This document shows positions 1,926 to 32,465 of a stretch of 64,000 nt of DNA, piece by piece; within the stretch, counting starts at the first letter, position 1; every line of letters starts with the position of its first letter. The notes beneath the pieces were generated by a model, which searched no databases, was not told where the DNA came from, and worked only from the letters and a program-made list of their open reading frames with translations. A program made the position numbers and the translations under genes. Source of the DNA: an uncultured Bacteroidales bacterium (GTDB taxonomy: Bacteria > Bacteroidota > Bacteroidia > Bacteroidales > GCA-2748055); contig CAWBWE010000006.1 of assembly GCA_963792395.1 (NCBI GenBank), positions 14,973-78,972 of the forward strand. Direction: 5' to 3'.

Positions 1926-1953
1926 TTTTGACGCAGAACCCGGCATAAGTAAC
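1926..1953 (-). promoter_or_regulatory. ECF-type promoter GTTACT-N15-GTCAAAA
   Basis: Reverse complement of ttttgac...agtaac, directly upstream of the ATG at 1908; one of 11 matching sites. Confidence 0.7.
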
Positions 1954-1957
1954 ACTT

Positions 1958-2524
1958 TTAGTCATGCATATATTTCTGCGTATATAAATACAATACCCTG
2001 GCCCGGGCTCTTTTCAGCCGCATCTTGGCGGCATCTTCGCTGATCCTTAAGGAATCCCCGATCTGCTTCATGGATAACTCTTCCCTGTATTTCATGAACA
2101 ATAAGGCCTTCTCCTCGGGGTGTATGTCTTCCAGGATCGTGAGCAGCTTTTCATAGTTCACCCCTTCAATCAACTCATCGCTTTCATCAATGATTTCCGG
2201 GATCTCATTTTCCCGGTCCCAGCTGGGGTAGTGCATTTTCTTTTTTTCACGCAAATAGTCAATGCAATGATTGTAGGTGACTGAAAATAACCAGGAGGAG
2301 AAGGAAGAAAGCTGCTTGAAGGAGGAAAGCTTCTCAAACACCTTGGAAAATATGTCTTCCGCCAGTTCTTCCGCTTCCTGCCTGTTCTTTACAAAGCTGT
2401 AGCAGTTGTCCAGCACTTTTGAATAATAACGCGCATAGAGAAGCTCAAAATATTTCGAAGAATCCTCGTTCCGGATTTTATAGATGAGTTCTTCATCTTT
2501 CAGGTGTTCCAGACCTTTTGCCAT
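1958..2524 (-). CDS. ECF sigma-70 factor (ECF-1)
   Basis: Region 2 (AEELAEDIFSKVFEKLSSF...FSSWLFSVTYNHCIDYLR) and region 4 (SMKQIG...KMRLKRAR). Confidence 0.93.
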   Translation of the reverse strand: MAKGLEHLKDEELIYKIRNEDSSKYFELLYARYYSKVLDNCYSFVKNRQEAEELAEDIFSKVFEKLSSFKQLSSFSSWLFSVTYNHCIDYLREKKKMHYPSWDRENEIPEIIDESDELIEGVNYEKLLTILEDIHPEEKALLFMKYREELSMKQIGDSLRISEDAAKMRLKRARARVLYLYTQKYMHD

Positions 2525-2590
2525 GGCTCCGCGTGCTTTGGGAATTAAAGGTAGGTGTATCGCCCCGGAAAAAAAAGTTTCAGTTATTTT

Positions 2591-2618
2591 GTTACCTGAA
2601 CAGCAAGTACCGTCCTAA
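2591..2618 (+). promoter_or_regulatory. ECF-type promoter GTTACC-N15-GTCCTAA
   Basis: Upstream of the lipoprotein/L,D-transpeptidase cluster; same spacing as the other sites. Confidence 0.75.
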
Positions 2619-2656
2619 TAGGGAATTAATAAAATAATACACTTATTGTTATTGAA

Positions 2657-3271
2657 ATGAAAAACAGAATTGTTGCAAGTATTGCATTTTTAGGAATGAC
2701 AGCCCTGATTTTAACTAGCTGTTCAAAAGTGCCCCAGGCTGAGATTGATGCTGCCAACGCTGCCATCGAGCAAGCAAGGTCTGCCGGAGCCGAAGTTTAT
2801 GTTCCTGAGGAGTTTGTAAGTCTGCAGGATTCCATGAACAGCGTTTTGGTAAGTATCGAATCGGAAGGTTCAAAATTTATCAAGACCTACGCGACAGCTA
2901 AAGAAGATCTGGCCAGTGTAACACAATTTGCCGGTGAAGTTCAACAGCAGGCAGAAACTCGCAAAGAGGAACTGAAAATGGAAATTCAGACCATGATTGC
3001 CGAGGTAAAAACGCTGATTGAATCCAACAGGCAACTGATCCTTGAAGCCCCCAGGGGCAAAGAGGGTACCTCCGCTCTTATTGCAATAAAAGGTGAGGTT
3101 GATGCAGTGGAAACTTCCATCAACGAAGCCAGCACTTTATTCGAGGCCGGTGATTATATGATCACCCTTGATAAAGCCAAAGCTGCAAAAGAGAAAGCCA
3201 CAGCGATCAATTCAGAATTGTCTGAAGTTATCGCTAAGTATAAGGCTAACGTACAGAGTAGAAGATCATAG
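2657..3271 (+). CDS. All-helical lipoprotein, DUF4398-like
   Basis: Lipobox LTSC; P.AEIDAANAAIEQARSAGAEVYVPE motif; Ala/Glu-rich helices. Confidence 0.75.
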   Translation: MKNRIVASIAFLGMTALILTSCSKVPQAEIDAANAAIEQARSAGAEVYVPEEFVSLQDSMNSVLVSIESEGSKFIKTYATAKEDLASVTQFAGEVQQQAETRKEELKMEIQTMIAEVKTLIESNRQLILEAPRGKEGTSALIAIKGEVDAVETSINEASTLFEAGDYMITLDKAKAAKEKATAINSELSEVIAKYKANVQSRRS

Positions 3272-3296
3272 ACGGGAAGAGAGATCCGTTAGACTT

Positions 3297-3330
3297 GCCC
3301 CGGTTCCGAGTCCTCGGAGCCGGGGTTTTG
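3297..3330 (+). terminator. Stem-loop / intrinsic terminator after the lipoprotein gene
   Basis: gccccggttccgag-tc-ctcggagccggggt hairpin followed by ttt. Confidence 0.7.
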
Positions 3331-3352
3331 TATATAATCATCCTTAAGGTTT

Positions 3353-4456
3353 ATGAGATCCAGAATTTGGCTCCCGGCATCCCTCCTTACGATGCTGCTC
3401 ACAGGCAGCCTGATCAGAATTTTAAGTAACAAAGCACCGGAAACCGAGGTGACGGAGGCTGGGAAAATGCTGGCAGAGGCTCAACTGGAGCGATCTCCGC
3501 GCTATGCCACCAGGACCTTCCTGCAGGCCGGCACGTATTACGATTCTGCCATGGTGGAGTGGAATACCCAGAATGACCGCTTCATCCTCTTCAGGAACTA
3601 CAATAAAGTGACCGAATTAGCCCGAAAGTCAGTAAATAGCAGCGAAGAAGCCATAAGCATTGCCCGCAGAACGATCTCAGAAACGGAAGATGCGCTTGGG
3701 ATCAGGCTTGAAAAATCAGAGGAAAAGATCCGGAATTTCCATGAGAATTTCAGCCGCTTCCCCATGGATAAGGAGCACCGGGACCGTTTTGCCAGGGGCA
3801 GATTGCTCTATTCAGAAAGCCAGCTTGCCTATAAAAACAAACAGTTCACCCTGTGTATGTCCAGGCTTGATTCCGTGGAAGCAATCACCAACGAGCTTTC
3901 ATCATTTTACCGGGACAGGCTGGAACAATATTTCGAGGAGTACCCCAAATGGGAGGCCGTGCTTGAACAAAGCATCACTTTCTCAAGAAAAAATCAAACC
4001 TTTGTCCTGGTGGTCGATAAAATGGCCAGGGAGCTTATCGTCTATAAAAATGGCAGGATCCTGAAGGAGTATCCTGTTGAACTGGGAGCCAACTGGGTGG
4101 GCGATAAAATGGAGCAGGGCGACAAATCCACCCCGGAAGGCCTGTACCGGATCCTGGATAAGAAGCAGAACGGGCAAACCAGGTATTACAAAGCCTTCCT
4201 GCTGGATTACCCCAATGCGGAAGATAAAAAAAGGTTCTCGCTAAATAAACAGAACGGGACCCTGAATCCGGATGCCCGGATCGGGAACCTCATTGAGATC
4301 CATGGAAGCGGAGGGAAGGGAATTGACTGGACCGACGGCTGTATTGCCTTGCAGGACAGGGATATGGATGAATTATTTGCCTTATGCCCGGTGCTTACCA
4401 GGGTCACTATTGTGGGATCAACAAAATCCTTAAACAGTCTAATATTCGATTTATAA
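3353..4456 (+). CDS. L,D-transpeptidase (YkuD) family protein, YafK/DpaA-like, with helical N-terminal domain
   Basis: K.EQGDKSTPEG.Y, YYKAFLLDYPN, IEIHG...WTDGCIAL with catalytic His/Cys. Confidence 0.88.
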   Translation: MRSRIWLPASLLTMLLTGSLIRILSNKAPETEVTEAGKMLAEAQLERSPRYATRTFLQAGTYYDSAMVEWNTQNDRFILFRNYNKVTELARKSVNSSEEAISIARRTISETEDALGIRLEKSEEKIRNFHENFSRFPMDKEHRDRFARGRLLYSESQLAYKNKQFTLCMSRLDSVEAITNELSSFYRDRLEQYFEEYPKWEAVLEQSITFSRKNQTFVLVVDKMARELIVYKNGRILKEYPVELGANWVGDKMEQGDKSTPEGLYRILDKKQNGQTRYYKAFLLDYPNAEDKKRFSLNKQNGTLNPDARIGNLIEIHGSGGKGIDWTDGCIALQDRDMDELFALCPVLTRVTIVGSTKSLNSLIFDL

Positions 4457-5217
4457 TGAGTCCTATTCGAGCAGATTTCCCCGTGGGAATTATCAGGAAA
4501 TCAGTCCTCAGATTGAAAAAATTTATCCCGAAGGCCGGTGAAAAGATCAGCCAGTGGATCCACAGGGTGCCTGAGCTCCTGAGGAAACATGCTGTTCTGC
4601 TGGCGGGAATGGCCCTGGTTGGGATCCTCCCCCTGCTGCTCAGAGCGGTGGTCTGGATGGTTCCGGTTTCATCACCTGCCCCGGTGCAAGTGGAAGAGCA
4701 GGAACTGGCTTCGCTCCGGCGCAAAATCAGCCAGGAAAATATCCTCCTGGACAGAAAGCTGAATGCCAGAAGGCCCGGATCCTATTACCTGGTCATTAAC
4801 AGCGCTTCCAATGAATTTGTGCTGTACCGGGGAACGGAAATCATCAAAAGGGATAAGTGCTCCACCGGAAGCTACATCCTGCTTAAAAACGGCGAGGAGC
4901 AGCAGTGGATGTTCAAAACCCCGAAAGGGGAATTCAGGATTCTGTATAAGACAGCCTCCCCGGTCTGGAAAAAGCCCGACTGGGCTTTTATAGAAGAGGG
5001 CCTGCCCGTTCCTTCTGCAAACCACCATACACGCTTTGAGTACAGTGTGCTGGGCGACTATGCCCTGAGCATCGGGGACGGATACCTGATCCACGGCACG
5101 CTCTACCAGCGTTTCCTCGGACTGCCCGTCACCCATGGCTGCGTCCGGCTGAATGATGAAAACCTGGAACTGGTATACAGGTCGCTTCAGCTCGGCTCGA
5201 AAGTTTATATTTATTAA
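4456..5217 (+). CDS. L,D-transpeptidase (YkuD), ErfK-like, membrane anchored
   Basis: TPKGEF.I..K...PVW..P, YLIHGT, VTHGCVRL; ATG overlaps the upstream stop (TAATG). Confidence 0.9.
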   Translation: MSPIRADFPVGIIRKSVLRLKKFIPKAGEKISQWIHRVPELLRKHAVLLAGMALVGILPLLLRAVVWMVPVSSPAPVQVEEQELASLRRKISQENILLDRKLNARRPGSYYLVINSASNEFVLYRGTEIIKRDKCSTGSYILLKNGEEQQWMFKTPKGEFRILYKTASPVWKKPDWAFIEEGLPVPSANHHTRFEYSVLGDYALSIGDGYLIHGTLYQRFLGLPVTHGCVRLNDENLELVYRSLQLGSKVYIY

Positions 5218-5226
5218 AAATTCGGA

Positions 5227-6030
5227 ATGCAGCTTAAAGACACGCCTGTAAAAACGGGTTCGAAAATAAAGTGGAAGACGGTCTGGACGATCTTTGCCCT
5301 GGCCGTTCTACTGGCCTTCTTCACCACGATCGCCCTGTCCCCGGTCCATAAATCCAGGGAGTTTCAGGAACTGGTCCAGGCTGATTCTGTGTTCATGGAA
5401 CAGTTTGACAGCAGGTACCATCATCCTGACCTGGACAGCCTGCTCCGGGAGCGGGCTTACAAAGAAGCGCTTTTGAAACTGGCAGAATCTGACTCCATCC
5501 AGCTGGTGGTGAACCTGTCAGACAGCACCGTTCTTCTGAATATTAAGGGAGTGCCCATACATGAGACCAGGATCCGTGAGTTCAGCAGGGATAAATTCCT
5601 GGAGAAGCTTCCCCTGATGCAGGAGATCAAACTCTTTTCCCTCCCCCTGACGGTTCTTTCCCAGTATGCCACCATTGTAAAAGAGCCGGTGGTGGTGCGC
5701 CATGCGCCCAGGGACGAAGAGGAAGCCGCAGAGAATGCCTGGCAACCGGACACCCTGGTGCAAAAGCCGGCTTTTGTGGCTTTTTCGGCTGAATATGGCA
5801 TCCAGATCATCTTCGAGCAGGACCGGGTGGAGAGCTTTCGCGAGCGCTGGAAGAAATTCGGTTTTTACAGCCATCTGCGCACCAGAAAGGCAACAAGTGC
5901 TGTTAAAAACTTCCTCCTGTTCTCCGGGCAGGAATACCAGCCTGCCATCACCATTGAGCTGCCTGTGGATGACCTGCGGGCCATCTACCGGGCCCTGCCG
6001 GACAGTACCCTGATCGTCCTGAAATTATAG
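5227..6030 (+). CDS. Membrane-anchored protein, probably a degenerate YkuD-like fold without catalytic His/Cys
   Basis: LVVNLSDSTV.L.IKG start and IEL..DDLRAIYRALP..T.IV end mirror the adjacent LDT, but there is no HG..C motif. Confidence 0.55.
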   Translation: MQLKDTPVKTGSKIKWKTVWTIFALAVLLAFFTTIALSPVHKSREFQELVQADSVFMEQFDSRYHHPDLDSLLRERAYKEALLKLAESDSIQLVVNLSDSTVLLNIKGVPIHETRIREFSRDKFLEKLPLMQEIKLFSLPLTVLSQYATIVKEPVVVRHAPRDEEEAAENAWQPDTLVQKPAFVAFSAEYGIQIIFEQDRVESFRERWKKFGFYSHLRTRKATSAVKNFLLFSGQEYQPAITIELPVDDLRAIYRALPDSTLIVLKL

Positions 6031-6067
6031 ACTGCTCCCTGCCTGGAATAAAAAGGGGACCTGCGCG

Positions 6068-6095
6068 GTTACCCTTTGGGCTTTTACCGTCATAA
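6068..6095 (+). promoter_or_regulatory. ECF-type promoter GTTACC-N15-GTCATAA
   Basis: 22 nt upstream of the ATG at 6118. Confidence 0.7.
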
Positions 6096-6117
6096 TTACA
6101 GATAAAGTACAAATACC

Positions 6118-6363
6118 ATGAAAACACAAACAGGCTACCTCAGGAAAATTGGCGGTTTCATTGCCAGAATGAGCACTGCCATCGTCTCCGGGATACCCCG
6201 GGAAAAGGCCGTGTTGAAACCCAGGAACTATACCATCCAGCACAACGGGAAGCCCTATGTTAAACCCGGAAGCGAAAAGTATTATCACCGGCCACCGGGT
6301 AAACCCGTCGTGGAGAAACAGACCCTGCTGAAAGAAAAGAAAAAAGCAAAGGCTGGGGATTAG
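6118..6363 (+). CDS. Small basic hypothetical protein (81 aa)
   Basis: A-rich leader, its own ECF motif, Lys/Arg-rich sequence. Confidence 0.55.
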   Translation: MKTQTGYLRKIGGFIARMSTAIVSGIPREKAVLKPRNYTIQHNGKPYVKPGSEKYYHRPPGKPVVEKQTLLKEKKKAKAGD

Positions 6364-8434: not shown

Positions 8435-8468
8435 TTAGTTCATTTTATGTTATAAATTAAGATGAGTT

Positions 8469-8555: not shown

Positions 8556-9176
8556 TTAAGCAGTAAGCTTCTTTCCGAGGAATCGTTTAAATCTATTTGC
8601 TTTCGGATATACAATGACGTTTGCCACCGGCCTGGAGATGGGTGTATTCTGAGATTCCCTTACCTGTACAGGAACTCTCCAGTCCCAACGGGCGCTTAGC
8701 TGGGTGCTGACCAGCCCGGCCCATTTCTGAGCCAGTTGCAATTCGCCCCTCAGGGTTAAGCAGTCATAATCGTTGTTATAGAATTCCAGAATGAGCTCCG
8801 GTCTGTGATCATGAAAAGAGAAGTTCAGGCTAATTCTTTCAATAAGGCTTACATCTTCCTTATTATAGCGGACATGGCTCTCTGATTTAGAGATTCTGCA
8901 CCCGGAAACTTCCGCCAGGTTTATTTTCTCACGAGTTTCCCCGCCCGGTGTTCTTCGGATGAAGAACAGGGTGTTCGCTTCGTTGCTGCCCATACCGATA
9001 AGGGTATTCTCCCAGGAGTCGTAATCCGCTATTTCAGTGCTGTATTCAGCTGCAAATTCTTTCAGCGGAGCCAGGGTCCTGTTTCGCCTTTTTTTATTCC
9101 TCTGCCACGCATAAACAAGCACTCCGGCCATGGAGGCCAGGATAATTGACCAGTCCATCATACTATTTAAGTTCAT
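8556..9176 (-). CDS. Hypothetical protein with N-terminal transmembrane helix
   Basis: 206-aa ORF; LEFYN...L.GELQLAQKW motif. Confidence 0.7.
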   Translation of the reverse strand: MNLNSMMDWSIILASMAGVLVYAWQRNKKRRNRTLAPLKEFAAEYSTEIADYDSWENTLIGMGSNEANTLFFIRRTPGGETREKINLAEVSGCRISKSESHVRYNKEDVSLIERISLNFSFHDHRPELILEFYNNDYDCLTLRGELQLAQKWAGLVSTQLSARWDWRVPVQVRESQNTPISRPVANVIVYPKANRFKRFLGKKLTA

Positions 9177-9393
9177 AATTCAAGGGTTTAAAAATAATTG
9201 TTCCTTACCGGCTAAAACCGGACACGACAAGTGCAGGGCTTCCGGAAAGAAAAACCGCTTCATACTGTTTTTCAATTTTGACGGGGAATTCCTTAAAAGT
9301 AACTTCTTGCCTTAAGCCCACCCTCACAATTTCATTAAATCACTTGACTGGCAATTCCTCATTGTTGTAACTTACCCTTACTCAATTCCCGGA

Positions 9394-14971: not shown

Positions 14972-14999
14972 GTGACCAATGCTTCGAAAAGCGTCACAA
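14972..14999 (+). promoter_or_regulatory. ECF-type promoter GTGACC-N15-GTCACAA
   Basis: 24 nt upstream of the ATG at 15024. Confidence 0.75.
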
Positions 15000-18435: not shown

Positions 18436-18463
18436 GTGACCAAATTATCAGGGCTAGTCAAAA
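18436..18463 (+). promoter_or_regulatory. ECF-type promoter GTGACC-N15-GTCAAAA
   Basis: Upstream of the DUF2934 gene. Confidence 0.78.
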
Positions 18464-18484: not shown

Positions 18485-18721
18485 ATGACAAAAAAAATGG
18501 CAAAAAAACCTGCACCTAAAACGGCAACAAAAGCTGCACCTAAAACGGCAACAAAAGCTGCACCAAAAAGCAAAGCCGCAGCCGGCAAAAAAAAGATAAG
18601 TGATACCGCTATCCGGAAACGCGCAGAGGAAATTTATCAGAGGCGGACCGAGAATGGTATTCCCGGAGATGCTGATTCTGACTGGCGTCAGGCAGAACAG
18701 GAGCTGATGAAATCCAAATAA
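18485..18721 (+). CDS. DUF2934-domain protein with Lys/Ala/Pro-rich histone-H1-like N-tail
   Basis: IRKRAEEIYQRR...G.ADSDWRQAEQEL signature; KAAPKTAT repeats. Confidence 0.82.
   Translation: MTKKMAKKPAPKTATKAAPKTATKAAPKSKAAAGKKKISDTAIRKRAEEIYQRRTENGIPGDADSDWRQAEQELMKSK
18510..18564 (+). repeat. 24-bp tandem repeat (ctgcacctaaaacggcaacaaaag x2.3)
   Basis: Exact copies at 18510-18533 and 18534-18557 plus a partial third. Confidence 0.9.
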
Positions 18722-19772: not shown

Positions 19773-19800
19773 GTGACCAACTTTGGTTCAGGAGTCCTAA
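19773..19800 (+). promoter_or_regulatory. ECF-type promoter GTGACC-N15-GTCCTAA
   Basis: 18 nt upstream of the DUF502 ATG. Confidence 0.78.
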
Positions 19801-19818: not shown

Positions 19819-20412
19819 ATGAAGAAACTGTTTAACTATTTCCTGCAGGGCATCCTGTATATAGCCCCCATCGGGGTCACCGTCTACATCCTTTACCTTG
19901 TATTCATCTTTGTGGACAGCCTGCTGAAAGATACCCTGAAGGAGCTCCTGGGTATTTATATCCCGGGACTCGGACTCCTGATCGTCATTGTGGTGCTGAT
20001 CCTGACAGGTATGATCGGTCAAACCATCATCGCACGTCCATTCAAGTTATTATTCAAACGTGTTCTGGCAAGAATCCCCCTGCTAAAAGTTTTGTTTTCT
20101 GCTTTCAGGGATCTTTTCTCTGCCTTTGTGGGAAAGGAACGCAAGTTCAACAGGCCCGTCCTGGTGCTGGTGAATCCCATCTCAAACCTGGAGAAACTGG
20201 GGTTCCTGACGGAGGAGGACCTTTCCATCATCGATGAGAAAGAAAAAGTTTCGGTTTACTTTCCCCACTCCTATAATTTTTCCGGGGAGCTGTTTATTGT
20301 CCCAAAAGAGAACGTCCGGCCCATTGACATGAATCCGGCCGAGGTAATGAAATTTATTGTGTCTGCAGGAGTGGCAGGCTGGGACCAGGAAGGCAATACT
20401 CAGAAAACATGA
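19819..20412 (+). CDS. DUF502 membrane protein
   Basis: RIPLLK....A.RDL, LGFLT, VYFPHSYNFSG, MKFIVSAG. Confidence 0.88.
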   Translation: MKKLFNYFLQGILYIAPIGVTVYILYLVFIFVDSLLKDTLKELLGIYIPGLGLLIVIVVLILTGMIGQTIIARPFKLLFKRVLARIPLLKVLFSAFRDLFSAFVGKERKFNRPVLVLVNPISNLEKLGFLTEEDLSIIDEKEKVSVYFPHSYNFSGELFIVPKENVRPIDMNPAEVMKFIVSAGVAGWDQEGNTQKT

Positions 20413-20437
20413 TTGTTTATCGATTACACTAATCCAT

Positions 20438-21475
20438 ATGGAAGAAAATACACTGATTCTGGTTCTTTTTATTATTGGTATCCTGGGGGTATTGATGTTT
20501 GACCTGCTGGTCGTTGGAAGAAAAAGTCACATCGTATCCCTTAAAGAAGCAGGCCTGTGGACGGGCATTTGGGTATCGCTTGCCCTGGGTTTTGCCCTCT
20601 TTCTGAGGTTTTTTGGAGAACATATTCATGGGATCAGCACCCCGGAGGAGCTGGACCAGGTACTGCTCAGGTATTATCCCTACCTTATAATAGATGCGGA
20701 TAGCTTTGCAGGCAGCCTGGAGATCTTCCGGAAAAGCATAGCCACCAATTATTTAACGGGATACCTGATCGAGGAGTCTCTTTCGGTGGACAATCTTTTT
20801 GTGATGATGGCCATTCTGAGTGCGTTCTCGGTAAATAAACAGGCCTATAAGAAAGTGCTTTTCTGGGGAATCCTGGGAGCTATCGTTTTGCGTTTTGTAT
20901 TTATTTTCGTGGGCGCGGCTCTGATTATCAGGTTTGAATGGTTGCTTTATATCTTTGGCGCCTACCTGATTTATGCAGGGGCCAAAATGTTCCTGAACCG
21001 GAATAAGGAGGTCCGGATCCAACCCCAGGATCATCGCCTGGTGAAATTTCTTTCCAGGAGATTCAAGGTTTTTCCCAGGTATGTTGGCGACCGGTTTTTT
21101 ATCCGGAAAAATGGAATCCTGTATCTGACTCCCCTGTTTATTGTGGTGATGCTCATCGAGGGCTCCGATCTGGTATTCGCGCTGGATTCCATTCCTGCGG
21201 TTTTCGCCATCACCCTGGATCCCTACATCGTCTTCTTCTCCAACGTTTTTGCCATTCTGGGCCTGCGCTCCCTCTTTTTCCTGCTGGTTCATGTGGTGGA
21301 CCGCTTTTACCTTTTGAAGGTGGGAGTGTCCCTCCTGCTCCTGTTTGTGGGGGTGAAACTCATCGCCCATGACTGGTTGCATCACCTGGGATATAAACCG
21401 GTATTCTCCCTCTATATCATCCTGGGGATCCTGGTCCTGAGTATCACGCTATCCATTGTCTTTCCAAAGAAGTGA
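20438..21475 (+). CDS. TerC/Alx family metal-homeostasis membrane protein
   Basis: GYLIEESLSVDNLFV, VLFWGILGAIVLR, DLVFALDSIPA, SNVFAILGLRSL. Confidence 0.92.
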   Translation: MEENTLILVLFIIGILGVLMFDLLVVGRKSHIVSLKEAGLWTGIWVSLALGFALFLRFFGEHIHGISTPEELDQVLLRYYPYLIIDADSFAGSLEIFRKSIATNYLTGYLIEESLSVDNLFVMMAILSAFSVNKQAYKKVLFWGILGAIVLRFVFIFVGAALIIRFEWLLYIFGAYLIYAGAKMFLNRNKEVRIQPQDHRLVKFLSRRFKVFPRYVGDRFFIRKNGILYLTPLFIVVMLIEGSDLVFALDSIPAVFAITLDPYIVFFSNVFAILGLRSLFFLLVHVVDRFYLLKVGVSLLLLFVGVKLIAHDWLHHLGYKPVFSLYIILGILVLSITLSIVFPKK

Positions 21476-21500
21476 CCAAGTCACCGCGCGGCTGTCTAAA
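21472..21500 (+). promoter_or_regulatory. ECF-type promoter GTGACC-N16-GTCTAAA
   Basis: Overlaps the TerC stop, upstream of the USP ATG at 21519; spacer is one base longer than at other sites. Confidence 0.65.
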
Positions 21501-21518: not shown

Positions 21519-22379
21519 ATGAGAAAGATCTTGTTTCCCTTCGAACTGGAAAGTCCGGTGTATAAGGAAGCTTATTTCTATGCGGTAAGAATTGCCCGGC
21601 AGATCTATGCAGAACTGATCGTTCTGAATGTGTATCAAGTGGAAGTTGATAATGATATCACCGAAGAAAGATATGGCAAACTGAAGCGGGATAACTGGTT
21701 CAAAGCTTACAATGAAATTAGCCGCTTCAACCGCTCTTATCTGGAGGAGCATGCCACCGTGGAAACTGACCTGAAGATCCGGTTCAATTACCGTTTTGTG
21801 AACGGGATTCTTCAGGATGAGATAAAAAGCATAGCCAAGGAAGAGGACGTCGATCTGATTATCCTGCCCCTCTCCGATAAGAGAGATTTCAACAGAAGAC
21901 AGTTGAAAATTATCCGGGACAATATTTTTGAGAAAAACAGGGCGTCCCTGCTGGTTTTTCCCCATGAGTGCGAATTCCGGCCCATCAGGAATATTGTATT
22001 TGCCACGGATCTGAAACGGCTGTTTAACTACCAGAGTTACATAAGCGATGTGGTCAGATATGCCCGGTCCTTTGATTCCGCGATTCATTTTATACACGTC
22101 TCCAACAAGAATAAAGCGGAAGAGTGGGAACATTCTGAGATCTATAAACTGATCCGGCAGGTCCTGGAAAAGGATAAAGCACACAGCTTTAAGAGCCTCC
22201 ATGGAAAAAGTATTCTGGAGTCCGTAAATCTATATGTGAAAGAAAGCCAGGCGGATCTCCTGGTGGTGGTGAAGCACCAGCAGAATTTCATGGAATCCAT
22301 CTTTAATGAAAGTGTAAGTAAGGAGATTTCCCTGAACTCCAGAATCCCGGTGCTGGTCATGCGGGAAAAGAGGGGCTAA
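21519..22379 (+). CDS. Universal stress protein (tandem USP domains)
   Basis: MRKILFP, NIVFATD, ADLLVV, SVSKEI...IPVLV. Confidence 0.85.
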   Translation: MRKILFPFELESPVYKEAYFYAVRIARQIYAELIVLNVYQVEVDNDITEERYGKLKRDNWFKAYNEISRFNRSYLEEHATVETDLKIRFNYRFVNGILQDEIKSIAKEEDVDLIILPLSDKRDFNRRQLKIIRDNIFEKNRASLLVFPHECEFRPIRNIVFATDLKRLFNYQSYISDVVRYARSFDSAIHFIHVSNKNKAEEWEHSEIYKLIRQVLEKDKAHSFKSLHGKSILESVNLYVKESQADLLVVVKHQQNFMESIFNESVSKEISLNSRIPVLVMREKRG

Positions 22380-22381
22380 AT

Positions 22382-22409
22382 GTGACCATTGCAGCTAAGA
22401 GGGTCTAAA
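22382..22409 (+). promoter_or_regulatory. ECF-type promoter GTGACC-N15-GTCTAAA
   Basis: Ends only 5 nt before the ATG at 22415. Confidence 0.78.
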
Positions 22410-22414
22410 AAGAA

Positions 22415-23197
22415 ATGAATGAATTTTGCTTTATAGAACTGGACAGTCCGAGTCCCATTGTCACAGCGGCGATACATAACGGGCATAAACTAAGTGAATC
22501 CCTTTCTCGAATCAGTGCCCTGTCTGAAAAAGAGAGGTTCAGAGAAGAAGATCCATACACCGGGATCTGGGGAAATATATCGGAGAATCACATTGTTTCT
22601 CAACGGTCCCGCTTTGAATTTGATCTCAACCGCGCTCCTGAAAAGGCCATTTACCTCCTTCCTTCAGATGCCTGGGGACTGACCCTGTGGAAGCGGGAAC
22701 CCTCCAGGCGTTTGATTGCTCAAAGCCTGAACCGGTATCATAGCATTTACCAGGAGATCCGGGATGGACTGGAAACCCTGATTGGGCGCTATGGAAAGAT
22801 CGTCATCCTGGACCTGCACAGTTATAACCATCGCCGGGGGGGACCGGAAGCTCCACCGGACGATCCGGAATTAAATCCGGAAATCAATATTGGGACCGGG
22901 ACCATGGACCGGGATTACTGGGCTCCGGTGGTGGACCGGTTTTTAGAGGATCTGAGGGCTTTTGAATTTCAGGGGAAGAAATGGGATATCCGGGAAAATA
23001 TCAAGTTCCGGGGCGGATACTTCCCCTCCTGGATCCACAGCACATTCGGGGAATCTGCCTGTTGCATTTCCGTGGAGATGAAAAAATTTTTTATGGATGA
23101 ATGGTCGGGCCAGCCCGACTGGGATATGATTGATGCCGTCACCGGGGCCCTGTTTGATACCTTACCCGGCCTACAGGAGGAGATCACCAAAAAATGA
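22415..23197 (+). CDS. N-formylglutamate amidohydrolase family protein
   Basis: AIHNGH, REEDPYT, SRFEFDLNR, DLHSYN, NIGTG, EN.KF.GG, SVEMKKFFMDE. Confidence 0.88.
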   Translation: MNEFCFIELDSPSPIVTAAIHNGHKLSESLSRISALSEKERFREEDPYTGIWGNISENHIVSQRSRFEFDLNRAPEKAIYLLPSDAWGLTLWKREPSRRLIAQSLNRYHSIYQEIRDGLETLIGRYGKIVILDLHSYNHRRGGPEAPPDDPELNPEINIGTGTMDRDYWAPVVDRFLEDLRAFEFQGKKWDIRENIKFRGGYFPSWIHSTFGESACCISVEMKKFFMDEWSGQPDWDMIDAVTGALFDTLPGLQEEITKK

Positions 23198-25101
23198 GCC
23201 AGGGAATGACAAAGCCGGTAAGTGTACTCACAGAAAGTTTCCTGGAGGATATCAGCAGCAGGCTGGCAGAAAATAAGGTGGTCCGGCGGACCCTGCCGGC
23301 TCATGGCCGGTTGCATATGGACCGGAAACTACCTTTCATATGCATCTACCGTCGCCCGCTTCGGCGCAATGACAATGGAACGGATCAACTGGTCAAAGGG
23401 GAAGCGTCCTACCTGGTCGCCTCTGCAGCACCCAGGTATAAAGCCGGGATCTCTGCCCTGCTTCGATCAGTCCTGGAGATTCGTTCGACGGGTCCCGGTG
23501 CCTTCCTGATGATCGAGCTCTGGTCCAGGAAATCTCCGGAGTACATTATAGATCCTGAGGTGGGCCGGGTAGCTCCCTCCTTTCGCATCCATGTCCCGTC
23601 TTCACGACTCCCGGTAGAAGCCATCGAGTCCATAGAAAAAGCCTTAAAACAAATCACTGTATCCAGAAAACGGAGCAGGGTTTCAACCCTTATTACCAGC
23701 AAGCCCTGGCCTGAACAGCTGCCCCCCTTGCTGAGCTCGGCGGAATTGAAGAAATACAATTGTTACCTGGTGGGCATCGAGGTCTCCCCCATATACCGGA
23801 ACCCCGAAACAGGGGAGCTCTATCCGCTGGTGCTGAAGAAGATCCACCGGGGAGTATCCATAGCCCTGAAAAAAGGGGCCTTCGAATTCTCCCGGAAGCG
23901 CAATTCCACCTCTCCGGTAAGTTATAAATCCCTGGGCAGGCGGGCTGTGGTCAAGTCCGTCTGGGAGGTGGATCAGAAGCTGGCCGAGATCGGCAGCGCC
24001 ATGGATTTCCTCATGCATGTAACTCCGGTGAATATGGAGCAGTCCTGGCGGAAATTCAAGGAAAATGGATTCCGGCGCGACCCGGTATTCTTTTACAGGC
24101 CCGTATCCTTTGATCCCTCCCTGCTTAAAAGAAAACTCTACCAGATCCCCTTTGACCGGATCGAGGACCCGGCACTGGCTTCCCTGTTCCACGACAAGAT
24201 GGTGGAACTGGAGAGGAAGTTCTCCATGGTAAGGGACCGGAACACCAGGAATTTTTTCTTTGGGAGCATGCAGCTTTACGGAGAGATGGACCGGGAACTT
24301 CTGGAACTGGCCAGGTCCATCCTGATACATATTTCACCCCGCAGCCGCGAAAAAAACGGGAAACGGATGATTGGTGCCCAGGGCTTTGCCGCGCGCGCCA
24401 GGGAGGAAATAGAGCTGTATCGCAGGGCCTATCCCGAAATTAAATCCCAGGTCTTTATCCGGGAGGATATCGCCGGTCTGCTGGTCTCACACGGGAACCT
24501 GCTTGTAGGCGCAGGATTGCGTATTCATGAATCGAGGCTGGAAGCTCTGATCCAGCACGAGGTGGGCACCCATGTACTTACCTATGCCAATGGCTTAACC
24601 CAGCCTTTTAAACAACTGTGCTCCGGGCTTTCCGGAAACGATGAACTGCAGGAAGGACTGGCCGTGCTTGCCGAATACCTCGTGGGCGGCCTGAGTCCAC
24701 CCCGGTTCCGCCTGCTGGCCGGACGGGTGGTGGCCGCACAGCTGCTCATTGAGGGCTCAGACTTCCGGAATACCTTCAGGGAGTTGAATCAAACCTATGG
24801 ATTTGCCCAGAGAACCGCCTACATGATAACTGCCAGGATCTACCGGAGCGGGGGCCTGACCAAAGATGCCGTGTATCTGAGGGGTCTGGTTCAACTGTTA
24901 AAACACCTCCGGAACGGAGGGAAGCTGCAGCCCCTTCTGGTAGGCAAATTCTCCCTGGACGACGTATCTATCATCACAGAACTGCAACTGAGAAAAGTAT
25001 TGCATCCTGCCCTGCTCTTACCCCGATATCTCTCCAATCCCCAATCCCTGTTATTGCTGGAAGATTTAAAAAAAGGAAAACTTATTTTTAATTTAATATA
25101 A
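23194..25101 (+). CDS. DUF1704 / QEGLA-motif zinc metallopeptidase (MATCAP-like carboxypeptidase domain)
   Basis: HEVGTH (HExxxH), LQEGLAVLAEY, R.YRSGGLTKDAVYLRG. Confidence 0.88.
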   Translation: MSQGMTKPVSVLTESFLEDISSRLAENKVVRRTLPAHGRLHMDRKLPFICIYRRPLRRNDNGTDQLVKGEASYLVASAAPRYKAGISALLRSVLEIRSTGPGAFLMIELWSRKSPEYIIDPEVGRVAPSFRIHVPSSRLPVEAIESIEKALKQITVSRKRSRVSTLITSKPWPEQLPPLLSSAELKKYNCYLVGIEVSPIYRNPETGELYPLVLKKIHRGVSIALKKGAFEFSRKRNSTSPVSYKSLGRRAVVKSVWEVDQKLAEIGSAMDFLMHVTPVNMEQSWRKFKENGFRRDPVFFYRPVSFDPSLLKRKLYQIPFDRIEDPALASLFHDKMVELERKFSMVRDRNTRNFFFGSMQLYGEMDRELLELARSILIHISPRSREKNGKRMIGAQGFAARAREEIELYRRAYPEIKSQVFIREDIAGLLVSHGNLLVGAGLRIHESRLEALIQHEVGTHVLTYANGLTQPFKQLCSGLSGNDELQEGLAVLAEYLVGGLSPPRFRLLAGRVVAAQLLIEGSDFRNTFRELNQTYGFAQRTAYMITARIYRSGGLTKDAVYLRGLVQLLKHLRNGGKLQPLLVGKFSLDDVSIITELQLRKVLHPALLLPRYLSNPQSLLLLEDLKKGKLIFNLI

Positions 25102-25111
25102 ACTAAAGAAT

Positions 25112-26155
25112 ATGAAAATTGGATTTGTAGTAAATGATATTCAAACAGAACAAGCCGGTTATACCACAACTCGTCTTGGGATGTGGGCCACCAACCGCGG
25201 ACACGAAGTCTGGGTCATCGGTCTCGGTGACTTTGCCTATGATCCGGATGAAAACATCCGGGCCAGGGCATATTCGGTTCCCAAGAAAACCTATAAGAAT
25301 ACGGAAACCTATTTAAAAGTGCTGCAGAGTAAAACCCGGGTCATGAACCGCATTACGGTGGATGACCTGGATATCCTGATGCTCCGCAGTGATCCTGCCA
25401 ATGAAACTAACCGGCCCTGGGCCGTTACGGCAGGCATCAATTTTGGCCGGATTGCCATGCGGCATGGAGTCATCGTGCTGAACGATCCCAATGGCCTGGC
25501 CAAGGCACTGAATAAAAGCTATTTTCAACTATTCCCCGAAGAGGTGCGGCCGCAGACCATGATTACCCGCGACCCGGGAGATATCAAACACTTTGCCAAC
25601 GAGCACGGAGGTCACATAGTCCTGAAACCCCTGCAGGGATCCGGCGGGTCCGGAGTTTTCCTGGTCAGGCCCGAGGATAAATCAAACCTGAACCAGATTG
25701 TGGAAGCGCTGCAGAGAGACGGTTATATCATTGCACAGGAATACCTGCCTGCGGCCATTGAAGGCGACACCCGCCTGTTTATGATGAACGGGGCCCCTTT
25801 GCGGTACAAAGGCAAATACGCGGCTTTCAGAAGAGTCAGATCGGGCGATGATATGAGAAGCAACATCCATGCCGGGGGCAAACTGAGACAGGCCGAGATC
25901 ACCGACCAGCACCTGCAGCTGGCTGAAATAGTCCGTCCAAAACTCGTCCAGGACGGGATGTTCCTGGTGGGACTGGATATCGTGGGAAACAAACTGATGG
26001 AGATCAATGTGTTCAGTCCGGGCGGACTGGGCAGTGCCCAGAATTTTGAAAAGGTGAACTTCAGCAATGCCGTGCTTGATGCCCTGGAACGCAAAGTGGA
26101 ATACATGGGATTCTACCGCCGGAATTTCGACAACGACGAAATGGCCACGCTCTAG
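25112..26155 (+). CDS. Glutathione-synthetase-like ATP-grasp peptide ligase
   Basis: LMLRSDP, NDPNGL, VLKPLQGSGGSGVF, QEYLP...GD.R, RSNIHAGG, GLDIVG..LMEINVFSPGG. Confidence 0.88.
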   Translation: MKIGFVVNDIQTEQAGYTTTRLGMWATNRGHEVWVIGLGDFAYDPDENIRARAYSVPKKTYKNTETYLKVLQSKTRVMNRITVDDLDILMLRSDPANETNRPWAVTAGINFGRIAMRHGVIVLNDPNGLAKALNKSYFQLFPEEVRPQTMITRDPGDIKHFANEHGGHIVLKPLQGSGGSGVFLVRPEDKSNLNQIVEALQRDGYIIAQEYLPAAIEGDTRLFMMNGAPLRYKGKYAAFRRVRSGDDMRSNIHAGGKLRQAEITDQHLQLAEIVRPKLVQDGMFLVGLDIVGNKLMEINVFSPGGLGSAQNFEKVNFSNAVLDALERKVEYMGFYRRNFDNDEMATL

Positions 26156-26160
26156 GTCCG

Positions 26161-26997
26161 CTACTCCTGTTTTGTTTTGATATGCACATCCCTTTGAGGA
26201 AAGGGGATGTGTATGCCGTTGGCCCTGAAGGCAGCATCGATCTTATAGCGGATCTCACTCTTGATATATTCCACCTGGAAAGTCTCGGTGGTCCAGAAAT
26301 ACAGCTGAAAATCCAGGGAGGAATTCCCAAAGTCATTAAAACGCACAAAGGGTTTTGGCATGGAGGAGACCTTTTCATCAACGTTGGCACACTGCAGCAG
26401 TACCCGGGTTACCTTCTCCACATCCGATCCATAAGCGACCCCCACGTCGATATGGAACCTGGTCCGCTTTTCAATATGGCTCCAGTTGATCACGATGTCG
26501 GTGACGAATTTTGAATTGGGCACCACCATCACAATGTTATCCCTGGTTTCCAGCTTGGAGGTCCTCAGTCCGATCTCGATCACCCGGCCCACCAGGTTGT
26601 CCTGAATTTCAACCACATCCCCTACTTTCAGGCTCCCCTCAAACAGAATGGCCACCCCGGACATGATATCCTGGAATATCTGTTGCAATCCCAGACCCAG
26701 TCCCACAAGCAGCGCGGCCGATCCGGCCAGAAGCAGGGTGAGTTTGATCCCTACGATCTCAAAGGAGATCATGAGGATGGCAATGTATACCACATATTTC
26801 AGGATTTGCAGGATGGCGTGGCTGCGGCCCGGATCAAACTCATTGTTTTTTACACGGGCCCGGAACACCCTTTTTACCAGGCGCATGACCAGCAGGGTGG
26901 CAAGGAACAGAATAAGGATGGTCAGGATCTCATAAACAGTGACATCAAAGACCTCTGTTTCAAGAAGCTTATATTCCAGGAATTCACCGAAGTTCAT
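26161..26997 (-). CDS. MscS-family small-conductance mechanosensitive channel
   Basis: GLGLGLQQIF.D..SG, VVPNSKF, GVAYGSD, IPFPQRD. Confidence 0.92.
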   Translation of the reverse strand: MNFGEFLEYKLLETEVFDVTVYEILTILILFLATLLVMRLVKRVFRARVKNNEFDPGRSHAILQILKYVVYIAILMISFEIVGIKLTLLLAGSAALLVGLGLGLQQIFQDIMSGVAILFEGSLKVGDVVEIQDNLVGRVIEIGLRTSKLETRDNIVMVVPNSKFVTDIVINWSHIEKRTRFHIDVGVAYGSDVEKVTRVLLQCANVDEKVSSMPKPFVRFNDFGNSSLDFQLYFWTTETFQVEYIKSEIRYKIDAAFRANGIHIPFPQRDVHIKTKQE

Positions 26998-27021
26998 TAC
27001 TTTTCACTCTTGACGGTTAAC

Positions 27022-27081
27022 AAAAAAAATGCCCGGTAAGTTCATACGGGTAATACTTTCCGCATTTCAAACTACCGGGCA
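27022..27081 (-). terminator. Long imperfect hairpin plus T8 tract (intrinsic terminator)
   Basis: tgcccggta...taccgggca arms, followed on the minus strand by eight T. Confidence 0.65.
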
Positions 27082-27100
27082 AAATACAATCTTAAAGCGA

Positions 27101-27778
27101 TTATTTCGCTTCTTTCTTGGTTTTAATATTCTTCAGGACCTCTGCAGCAGACTCTTTGCCTCCCAGCCCAAAGGCCAGGCCAAAGGCCAGACAGATGGCT
27201 CCAAATACAAGGATAAAGGCATTGGTGATGATATCCTGGGCAATTTTCAGCTGCCCCAACACCAGGAATACCGTAAAGACAAGCACAGCAATATAGGCGA
27301 CCTTTTCGATCACTTCTGCTGTTTGATCATTCATGTTCTTCAACGAGGAGGAAAGTACGTTGGCAATAAACCTGGCAGCGTACAGACCAAACAATAAAAT
27401 GACCAGGGCCACAATAATGTTAGGTATGAACAATATGATGCTGTTAAATAAGTCCTGGGCACTGGTTAGCTCCAGCGAATTAAACACAGCCAGGATAACT
27501 GTCAGCATGATGATCCAGTAAAACAGGCTGCCAACCAGGTCTACGGCTGTACTTTTCATTCCACCCTGTTTCAGGAATTTTTCAATTCCCACCTTCTCGG
27601 AGAGGGTATTCAGCCGTACAAGAAGCAATAACTTGACAATGGCTTTTTTAAGGAGCTTGGCTATAATCCATCCAATCAATAAAATAAGCAGTGCTCCAAT
27701 AATTTTGGGCAGTGCCGTGGCAACTTCATTCAGAAATTGCTGTGAACTTTCAAGGAAAATTCGTACCTGTTCTTTCAT
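27101..27778 (-). CDS. Conserved-TM-helix repeat membrane protein (CmpX/MscS-associated)
   Basis: LPKIIGALLILLIGWIIAK and IPNIIVALVILLFG repeats; LAFGLAFGLGGKE.A. Confidence 0.85.
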   Translation of the reverse strand: MKEQVRIFLESSQQFLNEVATALPKIIGALLILLIGWIIAKLLKKAIVKLLLLVRLNTLSEKVGIEKFLKQGGMKSTAVDLVGSLFYWIIMLTVILAVFNSLELTSAQDLFNSIILFIPNIIVALVILLFGLYAARFIANVLSSSLKNMNDQTAEVIEKVAYIAVLVFTVFLVLGQLKIAQDIITNAFILVFGAICLAFGLAFGLGGKESAAEVLKNIKTKKEAK

Positions 27779-27819
27779 TTTTTCTTGTTTTAGATTCGAT
27801 ATAAAGGTGTTAGTTTCTA

Positions 27820-27847
27820 TTTAGACAGGCGAATAAGAAAAAGTCAC
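27820..27847 (-). promoter_or_regulatory. ECF-type promoter GTGACT-N15-GTCTAAA
   Basis: Reverse complement of tttagac...agtcac, upstream of the ATG at 27778. Confidence 0.72.
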
Positions 27848-27896
27848 ATTTTTTTAGAGTTCCCTGTCCATATTTGTGTTGCCGGTCCGGCTTGCT

Positions 27897-27913
27897 CTAG
27901 GTAAAATACCTAG
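27897..27913. promoter_or_regulatory. Perfect inverted repeat CTAGGTA-AAA-TACCTAG, candidate response-regulator box
   Basis: 7-3-7 palindrome about 105 nt upstream of the ECF-2 gene. Confidence 0.55.
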
Positions 27914-28017
27914 GACCCATTCCTGCTGGAATTACCTTCTTTTCATGGAAATATACCGCTTTGAAAATACGCTTTAAGGCTCTGGATTCATGCGTTTTCT
28001 GTTCCTATTTTTAACTC

Positions 28018-28617
28018 ATGAAACAAAGTATAAGTAACAAGATGGAAAGTGTAATGCACTCCGGATTTAGTGATGACCAGTTGATCAGCCAGTTCCTGAA
28101 AGGGGATATGGACTGCTTCGGAGTTTTATACAGCAGATATTATCCCAAAGTTTATGCCAGGTGCTATTCCTTTTCAAGGAATGGGGACGATGCCTTTGAC
28201 ATGACTCAGGAAATACTGCTGAAGGCCATATCCAACCTGGGTTCATTCGGGGGCAACTCCAAATTCTCCACCTGGTTATATTCCATAGCGACCAACTATT
28301 GTATTACGCAGGCCGGTAAGAAAAGCCGCAAATACCATGAAGATGTAAAAGCAGCTTATGAGCTCCTGGATGAGCGGATGGATGAGGAAGATTATAGAGA
28401 AAGGCTGAAATGGGAGGCCCTGGAATCAAATCTGGATGAATACCTCGATTTGCTGCCCGAAGAGGAACGACAGCTACTGGAACTGAAATACCGGAAAAAC
28501 TTCTCGGTGAAAGACCTGCAGAAAGAATTTGACCTCTCTGCCAGTGCAGTAAAAATGCGTTTACACCGGGCAAGGATGAAGGTGAGCCTGCTGATCAGTA
28601 TCGAGGAAGCTGCTTAA
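28018..28617 (+). CDS. ECF sigma-70 factor (ECF-2), paralog of ECF-1
   Basis: LYSRYYPKVY..CYSF, SF.GNSKFSTWLYSIATNYC, SASAVKMRLHRAR. Confidence 0.93.
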   Translation: MKQSISNKMESVMHSGFSDDQLISQFLKGDMDCFGVLYSRYYPKVYARCYSFSRNGDDAFDMTQEILLKAISNLGSFGGNSKFSTWLYSIATNYCITQAGKKSRKYHEDVKAAYELLDERMDEEDYRERLKWEALESNLDEYLDLLPEEERQLLELKYRKNFSVKDLQKEFDLSASAVKMRLHRARMKVSLLISIEEAA

Positions 28618-32457: not shown

Positions 32458-32465
32458 GATAGAGA

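Follow-up and report, generated by a model that had tools for sequence, protein, structure and literature searches.

The 64,000-nucleotide window analysed here (G000:C6:14973-78972) comes from an uncultured Bacteroidales bacterium, G000, whose assembly has 4.19 Mb in 31 contigs and is 67.5% complete. It encodes two extracytoplasmic function (ECF) sigma factors, ECF-1 and ECF-2, which probably belong to one ECF clade and act as local regulators, each with its own promoter dialect for the genes around it. Among alternative sigma factors the ECF family is the largest, and Bacteroidota genomes carry many of its members. ECF-1 would read GTTACYT-N13-CGTC, which precedes a conserved partner gene, a lipoprotein/L,D-transpeptidase operon and two small genes. 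ECF-2 would read tGTGACCa-N13-DGTC (D, not C), found at eight operons and at about five remote sites, and its predicted targets include mechanosensitive channels, Usp proteins, TerC, MgtE and amino-acid or peptide metabolism. Two of the three dialect differences, at the third -35 base and at the base 5' of the -10 GTC, appear to be matched by residues predicted to face the DNA, Asp or Ser at the equivalent of G168 of Escherichia coli RpoE and Asp or Thr at the equivalent of N84. Neither sigma seems to be autoregulated via its own motif, and ECF-1 is probably restrained by a downstream product that it transcribes, which would constitute negative feedback. The two sigma genes are as follows.

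1958 to 2524, minus strand: ECF-1, ECF sigma factor of 188 residues (Pfam, TIGR02937), Asp at the G168 equivalent and Asp at the N84 equivalent.
28018 to 28617, plus strand: ECF-2, ECF sigma factor of 199 residues, Ser at the G168 equivalent, His at the F175 equivalent and Thr at the N84 equivalent.

Both genes stand where an initial annotation of this DNA had placed them. Pfam Sigma70_r2 and Sigma70_r4_2 are found in ECF-1 and ECF-2 alike, and both proteins exceed the TIGR02937 cut-off of 42.9 bits (89.9 and 95.0 bits respectively). ECF (group IV) members of the sigma-70 family contain regions 2 and 4 only and have about 200 residues, a make-up that both proteins share. Narrower NCBIfam models are passed by neither; the scores for TIGR02985 (Sig70_bacteroi1) are 79.0 and 76.5 bits, below its cut-off of 126.4. 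The two sigmas are 36% identical and are by identity mutual closest matches among the approximately 24 sigma70_r2 open reading frames (ORFs) of the genome, with two further ECF sigmas nearly as close (28-32% identity). The common motifs quoted in the initial annotation and the helices SEDAAKMRLKRA and SASAVKMRLHRA are present in the two proteins.

Orthologs of ECF-1 (53-78% identity) occur in 21 of 60 family genomes, and matches at E <= 1e-30 in 32 of 401 sampled genomes of the order, G000 included. ECF-2 is much less widespread: among the 60 family genomes only G058 (72%) and G051 (49%) carry an ortholog, and with a subsequent pattern-based scan of 185,579 species, one genome per species, the number of other confirmed ECF-2 loci is six, all in uncultured metagenome-assembled genomes (MAGs). 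Uncultured Bacteroidales/Bacteroidetes MAGs are likewise the source of the near-identical and related loci. A maximum-likelihood tree built quickly from 58 rows, with SH-aLRT as its only support measure, places the ECF-2 clade as sister to the entire Bacteroidales ECF-1 family. The initial annotation had proposed a duplication; a recent one is ruled out by the position of ECF-2 as a rare sister clade of the whole ECF-1 family, and the split between ECF-1 and ECF-2 is, on this tree, old.

Promoters read by ECF sigmas are typically two-part, with a -35 box of the ..AC type and a CGT-type -10 element at 16-17 bp. The motif found here, GTKACY-N14-(C/D)GTC, fits this type, with one conserved spacing, and is known from sequence alone. 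It occurs in a T class (GTTAC) and a G class (GTGAC), and the predicted promoters of the two classes are listed with the genes that they would drive.

1926 to 1953, minus strand: T-class, GTTACT-N14-CGTCAAAA; partner gene; position conserved in orthologous loci.
2591 to 2618, plus strand: T-class, GTTACC-N14-CGTCCTAA; divergent from ECF-1; conserved in orthologous loci.
6068 to 6095, plus strand: T-class, GTTACC-N14-CGTCATAA.
9276 to 9303, minus strand: T-class, GTTACT-N14-CGTCAAAA.
14972 to 14999, plus strand: G-class, the only one with CGTC; 267-residue Phenol_MetA_deg-domain protein (15024-15827).
18436 to 18463, plus strand: G-class; 78-residue protein (18485-18721) with weak DUF2934 similarity.
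19773 to 19800, plus strand: G-class; DUF502 and TerC genes (19819-21475).
21472 to 21500, plus strand: G-class, spacer longer by one base; Usp-domain protein (21519-22379).
22382 to 22409, plus strand: G-class; operon of N-formylglutamate-amidohydrolase-like (FGase), MATCAP/QEGLA and glutathione-synthetase-like genes (22415-26155).
27820 to 27847, minus strand: G-class, divergent from ECF-2; MscS-type membrane protein and MscS channel (27778 down to 26161).
30398 to 30425, plus strand: G-class; Usp, pyridoxal phosphate (PLP) enzyme, DUF1611, creatininase-domain and enolase-superfamily genes (30443-36949).
36946 to 36973, plus strand: G-class; MscS-like protein, MgtE_N/CBS protein and MgtE (37000-39969).

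The initial annotation had counted three GTTAC(C/T) and eight GTGAC(C/T) sites. For bare hexamers these figures fail, the window containing 34 GTTACY (29.4 expected) and 52 GTGACY (39.7 expected); they stand only for the two-part motif, which was left unstated there. Its three T-class sites around ECF-1 (1953, 2591 and 6068) were recovered, and a fourth, at 9303 on the minus strand, had been overlooked. The pattern GTKAC-N15-CGTC has five matches in the window against 0.30 expected, a number reached in none of 100 shuffles; the five are the four GTTAC sites (1953-, 2591+, 6068+ and 9303-) and the GTGAC site at 14972. Printing all GTGACY with their downstream sequence gave the eight intergenic G-class sites, which follow the pattern GTGACY-N14-NGTC(N)(H)A(W) and correspond to the eight counted in the initial annotation. 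All are oriented toward the downstream gene and have a fixed spacing, except for the additional base at 21472. The -10 element lies 9-46 nt from the start codon at the eight G-class sites and about 16-100 nt from it at the four T-class sites.

Genome-wide, GTGACY...GTCNHAW has 15 matches when the spacing is 15 and 1-4 for each of nine alternative spacings, and GTTACY with the extended -10 has 8 against 0-4 at other spacings, while the plainer GTTAC-N15-CGTC is unenriched (14 matches, against 13 at spacing 12). Since plain genome-wide counts are unimpressive, the signal lies in clustering and in promoter-like context. Four T-class sites fall inside 7.4 kb around ECF-1, and eight of the roughly 14 promoter-like G-class sites in the 4.19-Mb assembly fall inside 22 kb centred on ECF-2. 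The two-part motif is real and above chance.

The pairing of each class with its sigma recurs in other genomes. The ECF-1 family was compared over 48 loci, drawn from 21 family genomes and 26 further genomes of the order, and GTKAC-N15/16-CGTC sites flank the sigma gene in 47 of them. In the usual layout one site is just past the stop codon, at a small conserved gene, and the other is divergent upstream, at a lipoprotein gene. GTGACY-N15-GTC is present within 2.5 kb of the sigma gene in all six other ECF-2 loci and within 450 bp in six of seven when the window's own locus is included; the divergent site corresponding to that at 27847 is kept at the same place in five of the six. In G058 the ECF-2 contig has 12 GTGACY matches over 40 kb around ECF-2, 11 of them promoter-like by eye, and the first 16 kb of the ECF-1 contig contain four GTTACY...CGTC and no GTGACY. 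The third -35 base, as the initial annotation had proposed, divides the classes fully in this genome (4 T, 8 G) and also in G058 (4 T, 11 G). The GTGACC promoter of the FGase operon is kept upstream of the G058 ortholog; in G016 and G018, two genomes in which ECF-2 was not found, GTNAC-N15-17-GTC was not found upstream of the orthologs of this operon (no match in the G016 locus, one GTCAC match about 1.3 kb inside that of G018). A search for ECF-1 at E <= 1e-20 in G459, G460 and G461 gave the ECF-2 ortholog itself as its sole match. In these three genomes the G-class matches are clustered around ECF-2 (5 of 6, 8 of 10 and 2 of 4 respectively), and the T-class matches (7, 5 and 3) are dispersed, either on other contigs or at distances above 260 kb. 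No GTGACY sites flank any other sigma gene of G000. The assignment of each class to its adjacent sigma, already made in the initial annotation, is well supported by this recurrence (47 of 48 ECF-1-family loci, 6 of 6 ECF-2 loci), and we infer that each class is read by the sigma next to it.

The dialects had been thought to differ in a single base of the -35 box. Alignment of the sites reveals three differing positions: the third -35 base (T or G), position 7 (T or A) and the base 5' of the -10 GTC (C or not C). The counts below, in which Asp-type and Ser-type refer to the residue at the G168 equivalent, are from ECF-1-family sites with CGTC at spacer 15 only and from ECF-2 sites chosen by eye as promoter-like.

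Asp-type ECF-1 sigmas, 49 sites: box position 3, T 49; box position 7, T 38, A 7, C 4.
Ser-type ECF-1 sigmas, 31 sites: box position 3, G 21, T 10; box position 7, T 30.
ECF-2, 25 sites: box position 3, G 25; box position 7, A 17, T 4.

The base 5' of GTC in the 25 ECF-2 sites is A in 10, G in 7, T in 7 and C in 1. Because circularity was to be avoided for the ECF-1 family, its 48 loci were rescanned without demanding C, and 82 of 83 sites had CGTC, the lone exception being the reverse reading of a site.

RpoE numbering was transferred by aligning the family with the rpoE product of E. coli K-12, and the third -35 base is -33 in this numbering. A PDB sequence search, whether with ECF-1 or with the 69 residues at its C-terminus, did not retrieve RpoE region 4. 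In SEDAAKMRLKRAR of ECF-1 the Asp, first Lys, Met and second Lys are the equivalents of G168, R171, S172 and F175, and the Asp of NHCID is the equivalent of N84; the G168 equivalent stands where the recognition helix begins. At the same five positions ECF-2 has Ser, Lys, Met, His and Thr. The residue at the G168 equivalent and the base at -33 are related in the ECF-1 family as follows.

Asp, 25 sigmas: T only at -33 in 24 (49 of 49 sites), no site found in 1.
Gly, 3 sigmas: T only.
Ala, 1 sigma: T only.
Ser, 19 sigmas: G only in 11, mixed in 4, T only in 4.

All seven ECF-2 sigmas have Ser here, six of them with G only within 450 bp and one with no site that close, and G at -33 is seen with Ser at this position only. 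The initial annotation had pointed to a Lys/His difference in the recognition helix. This difference does not follow T/G, and Asp versus Ser at the G168 position does. Lys or His at the F175 equivalent was rejected as the T/G switch: the G-using ECF-1 orthologs keep Lys, and ECF-2 orthologs, all of which use G, have Leu (five of seven loci) or His (only in the window and a 96% relative). The N84 position is Asp or Glu in the ECF-1 family, where C precedes GTC in 82 of 83 sites, and Thr, Ser or Asn in ECF-2, where it does so in 1 of 25.

The initial annotation had also drawn attention to genomes with only one paralog, in which use of both -35 variants would speak against its split. Such mixed use occurs among the Ser-type relatives (4 of 19) and is seen with neither Asp-type ECF-1 nor ECF-2. 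Since Ser-type relatives use both bases, the T/G change at -33 is in itself no barrier for every member of the family. The strict G of ECF-2, together with not-C, is also seen in genomes in which ECF-1 was not found, and this favours a preference intrinsic to the sigma over a mere avoidance of cross-talk. In the quick tree the Asp-type sigmas form one clade. The base at -33 changes at least three times among the 23 non-Asp ECF-1 rows and not once among the 24 Asp rows, and T has been strictly retained after the single origin of Asp, across several families and with fully diverged spacers. The evidence favours a window pair kept separate by two keys, Asp at the G168 position with T together with a strict C for ECF-1, and a strict G together with not-C for ECF-2. 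From these patterns we also infer an absence of cross-activation between ECF-1 and ECF-2. At the atomic level, Lys at the F175 position might donate to the keto group common to G and T, with Asp at the G168 position adding the choice of T.

Two elements next to the sigma genes bear on how they may be controlled.

1504 to 1908, minus strand: partner gene, 134 residues, candidate anti-sigma; just downstream of ECF-1, with its own T-class promoter.
27880 to 28017, plus strand: conserved region upstream of ECF-2, with the palindrome TAGGTA-N3-TACCTA and further TACC blocks.

Positive autoregulation is common, not universal, among ECF sigmas. A sense-strand copy of its own motif was not found upstream of either ECF-1 or ECF-2, as the initial annotation had reported; the nearest sites face away, into the divergent genes. 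Upstream of ECF-2, several blocks are kept in four to five of five ECF-2 loci, namely the palindrome, GGAATTACCT, AAAATACGCTT and a TAnnTTTA element near the start codon. The region has no Rfam matches (nor has the window between 1 and 40000) and no conserved RNA fold, the consensus fold consisting only of the 5-bp palindrome. It is probably an operator with a housekeeping-type promoter.

The cognate anti-sigma of an ECF sigma is often encoded next door. The initial annotation saw no obvious anti-sigma neighbour of either gene, and this stands in so far as Pfam scans of the neighbours of ECF-1 and ECF-2 detected no known anti-sigma domain and gave no candidate for ECF-2; it passed over the conserved gene at 1504-1908 on the minus strand, downstream of ECF-1 and behind its own T-class promoter. 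A homolog of this partner adjoins the sigma gene in 40 of the 48 ECF-1-family loci, a count limited to ATG-start ORFs of at least 80 residues. By eye the protein has no signal peptide or hydrophobic N-terminus, and it matches no Pfam family at E <= 1. Its AlphaFold2 model (predicted local distance difference test score, pLDDT, 90.2) has a BLIP-like/DUF2874 fold, with TM scores of 0.77-0.83 to five BLIP-like structures (4hbr, 3u1w, 4fr9, 4ipb and 4k61) and Foldseek E-values of 2e-8 to 3e-7 to the same five. The solved BLIP-like/DUF2874 proteins of Bacteroides are described as periplasmic, unlike the partner, which lacks a hydrophobic N-terminus and is encoded behind a sigma gene. We know of no anti-sigma role for this fold. 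The partner was taken as a candidate anti-sigma because of the conserved pairing and the sigma-dependent promoter, and the modelling lends weak support to the suggestion that it may be the anti-sigma of ECF-1. Were that true, the known anti-sigma factors would gain a new fold. Elsewhere in the genome, beyond the window, a T-class-like GTTACC-N14-AGTC lies upstream of a 143-residue protein (G000:C2:16157-16641) that has an N-terminal hydrophobic segment and whose sequence, judged by eye, is similar to PepSY-like/DUF2874 proteins; this protein is possibly a secreted relative of the partner.

A number of observations weigh against two separate dialects read by two insulated local regulators. The extended -10 patterns GTTACY-N14-CGTCNHAW and GTGACY-N15-GTCNHAW have 4 and 7 window matches against 0.02 and 0.07 expected, figures that are descriptive and not a test because the patterns were built from the very sites counted. 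The ECF-2 site set was chosen by eye, with two intragenic-looking G058 matches dropped and two sites with a spacer longer by one base left out. Whole-genome pattern counts in the relatives do not exceed those of reversed-pattern controls, so that there the clustering alone is informative. Four of the 19 Ser-type ECF-1 sigmas (L085, L091, L102 and L103) use G and T at their two flanking promoters, and ECF-2 has Ser at the G168 position like these mixed-use relatives. Asp arose once, which leaves one or two independent contrasts and therefore no statistical power for the association of Asp with T. Site 14972 is a hybrid in which CGTC occurs together with G at -33. Either class could be read by another sigma, given the roughly 24 sigma70_r2 ORFs of the genome and the 67.5% completeness of its assembly. 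As to the partner, the predicted complex with ECF-1 scored 0.50 (runs 0.50, 0.46 and 0.74) against 0.02 for the best control and was rated weak support; when the score was calibrated, the mark was reached by 116 of the 157 solved complexes and by 2 of the 215 mismatched pairs, and the range at or below 0.60 held 18 of the 157 solved complexes and both mismatches. At least 62% of contacts are shared between the runs, with a partner pLDDT of at least 82. Rather doubtful is a more ambitious proposal: that this Bacteroidales clade has abandoned the canonical A at -33, that the G168 position is itself the -33 switch (Asp for T, Ser for G or T, perhaps helped by Lys at the F175 position) and that it forms with the N84 Asp-to-Thr exchange a two-key lock parting a cell-wall module from an osmotic/ion-stress island, ECF-1 being controlled by a cytoplasmic BLIP-like/DUF2874 anti-sigma of a new kind.

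Among the alternatives, the promoters could be real and the sigmas not insulated, with overlapping regulons as in Bacillus subtilis and a T/G split that reflects inherited history or tuning of promoter strength. The side-by-side use of GTGAC and GTTAC by 4 of the 19 Ser-type ECF-1 orthologs, the Ser of ECF-2 itself and the mixed character of site 14972 all speak for such overlap, and overlap between ECF paralogs is known for B. subtilis (excerpts of PMC5758882) and for SigD/SigH of C. glutamicum (excerpts of PMC7826278). We nevertheless consider this reading unlikely, given that there are no exceptions among Asp-type sites (49 of 49 T) or ECF-2 sites (25 of 25 G, also where no ECF-1 was found) and that the -10 difference (C in 82 of 83 against 1 of 25) coincides with a published specificity position. 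The G class could instead be read by another regulator, either a further ECF sigma, possibly in the unassembled third of the genome, or a DNA-binding protein, ECF-2 being a passenger in the island. The large complement of sigma70_r2 ORFs in an incomplete assembly leaves room for such a reader, ECF-2 has no motif copy upstream of itself, and two sites (14972 and C14:49777) are palindromic, GTGAC...GTCAC. Yet the G-class cluster accompanies ECF-2 in seven genomes and is centred on it, no other G000 sigma is flanked by GTGACY, and most G-class sites are non-palindromic, all of them facing a downstream gene with ECF-like -35/-10 geometry, which makes this explanation distinctly improbable. That the sites are chance hexamers near two sigma genes would agree with the bare hexamer counts, which are at or slightly over expectation (34 against 29.4 and 52 against 39.7); the two-part motif (5 against 0.30 expected, none of 100 shuffles), conserved in dozens of orthologous loci with diverged spacers, reduces this explanation to a negligible one. 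Two local regulators of one clade, each with its own dialect, remain the probable reading.

The predicted target genes agree roughly with the division into a cell-wall and an osmo/metabolic set made in the initial annotation, the T class comprising a lipoprotein and L,D-transpeptidases and the G class channels, Usp proteins, TerC, MgtE and metabolic operons. The T-class targets beyond the partner gene are as follows.

2657 to 6030, plus strand: operon encoding a lipoprotein (weak DUF4398), two YkuD L,D-transpeptidases and a 267-residue protein (Pfam).
6118 to 6363, plus strand: 81-residue basic protein.
8556 to 9176, minus strand: 206-residue protein of no known family, the first sizeable ORF behind the 9303 promoter.

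Contig C5 of G058 has the same four genes as the 2657-6030 operon behind a T-class site, and an ortholog of the 81-residue protein (45% over 65 residues) also stands behind a T-class site on that contig. Within the G-class set, the operon at 22415-26155 encodes, after the N-formylglutamate-amidohydrolase-like protein, a MATCAP/QEGLA protein (TIGR02421, 321 bits, cut-off 338.65) and a glutathione-synthetase-like ATP-grasp protein (PRK12458, 473.7 bits). Of the two genes divergent from ECF-2, that at 27101-27778 on the minus strand carries PF05552 and that at 26161-26997 on the minus strand is MscS. About five G-class sites are remote, some of them before a DUF2934-like paralog and divergent membrane transporters. 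The DUF2934 match of the 78-residue protein (18485-18721) has E 0.003, under the cut-off; this protein and a 72-residue paralog (G000:C13:72443-72661) have a common GIPGDA.SDW..AE.EL core, and each is encoded behind a G-class promoter. Site 14972 is a perfect GTGAC...GTCAC palindrome that both sigmas could read, and a similar palindrome is found at G000:C14:49777/49802, in the gap separating divergent transporter genes.

In the window, ECF-2 is separated from the PLP-enzyme operon by genes (28624-31387) for a response regulator of the NarL type, a HisKA_3 kinase and a Usp protein, an arrangement that L072, the 96% relative, shares. The PLP-enzyme gene of G058 and of L073 directly follows ECF-2 and has its own GTGACC promoter. 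The 28624-31387 segment looks like an insertion into the island. Base composition gives no sign that the island is foreign, with a GC content of 0.45-0.53 along the window against 0.485 for the genome, and this idea was set aside. A third related ECF sigma is found outside the window.

G000:C13:15356 to 16003: ECF sigma with GTAAC-N16-GCGTC sites upstream of itself and His at the F175 equivalent.

This paralog represents a third -33 variant (A) within the same genome, and similar GTAAC-type sigmas occur in G003, G014, G022, G048 and G011.

It is already established that ECF sigmas can act locally, that single residues can set their specificity and that the promoters of related ECF sigmas are told apart, and the findings on ECF-1 and ECF-2 do not overturn current understanding. 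How related ECF copies avoid cross-talk matters in practice, for the reading of regulons and for orthogonal switches. The locus offers a natural matched pair, with two clear promoter classes, a candidate residue for -33 and a known -10 determinant that changes in parallel, and relatives with one sigma or with an intermediate Ser-type sigma add natural comparisons. The literature search did not find this sigma pair, a -33 residue or a BLIP-like anti-sigma, the last of which it was not aimed at.

The comparisons with published systems rest on excerpts of the papers cited. In PMC7776599 (Todor et al. 2020, PNAS) many ECF sigmas are described as local regulators, whose motif is revealed by the promoters of divergent genes. 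Single residues of sigma4 and sigma2 are paired there with single promoter bases, mutagenesis shows that the N84 position sets -12/-13, and an ECF sigma can be redirected by the exchange of one residue or one base. The pairs named in the excerpts are R171/-31, S172/-34, F175/-32, N84/-12,-13 and K56/-11, with none for -33 and no mention of G168. The N84 determinant agrees with the C/not-C difference between ECF-1 and ECF-2, and the association of the G168 position with -33 lies outside these listed pairs. For E. coli sigmaE, the excerpt of PMC1540707 (Lane and Darst 2006) describes a van der Waals contact of F175 to the T opposite an "absolutely conserved A" at -33. The region 4 of the two sigmas resembles that of sigmaE in having the same helix-turn-helix, with R176 and R173 conserved and the AC of the -35 box kept. 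They differ from sigmaE and the sigmas with which it is compared there (A at -33; Phe or His at F175) in that -33 is T or G and the F175 equivalent is Lys in the ECF-1 family and His or Leu in ECF-2; the GTAAC-using paralogs alone keep His together with A at -33.

The nearest named group may be ECF102 (SigX of Pseudomonas aeruginosa). In the excerpts of PMC7826278 (Casas-Pastor et al. 2021), 66% of ECF102 is from Bacteroidetes, a mechanosensitive channel gene is at position -1 in subgroups s2 and s5, and there is no conserved autoregulatory motif; the searched portion of its supplement does not contain DUF2874, PF11396, YkuD or PF03734. For SigX, the excerpt of PMC7641640 states that the promoter consensus "remains not precisely defined". 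In line with these features of ECF102, ECF-2 has adjacent MscS-type genes, here divergent upstream and so arranged in G058 too, and is not autoregulated; unlike ECF102, ECF-1 has no adjacent mechanosensitive channel gene, and neither sigma has an OprF-like gene beside it. ECF-1 and ECF-2 score 76.8 and 82.1 bits against the SigX model NF007222, under its cut-off of 194, so that membership of ECF102 is a lead and not a finding; ECF-2, ECF-1 and the GTAAC paralog are the top three of 19 matches to this model in the genome (76.8-82.3 bits, the next being 61.1). In B. subtilis, according to the excerpt of PMC5758882, the related ECF sigmas sigmaM, sigmaW, sigmaX and sigmaV have similar promoters and overlapping, dispersed regulons, and few positions set their selectivity. 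Unlike these, the promoter classes of ECF-1 and ECF-2 are without mixed use, and each is clustered around its own sigma gene.

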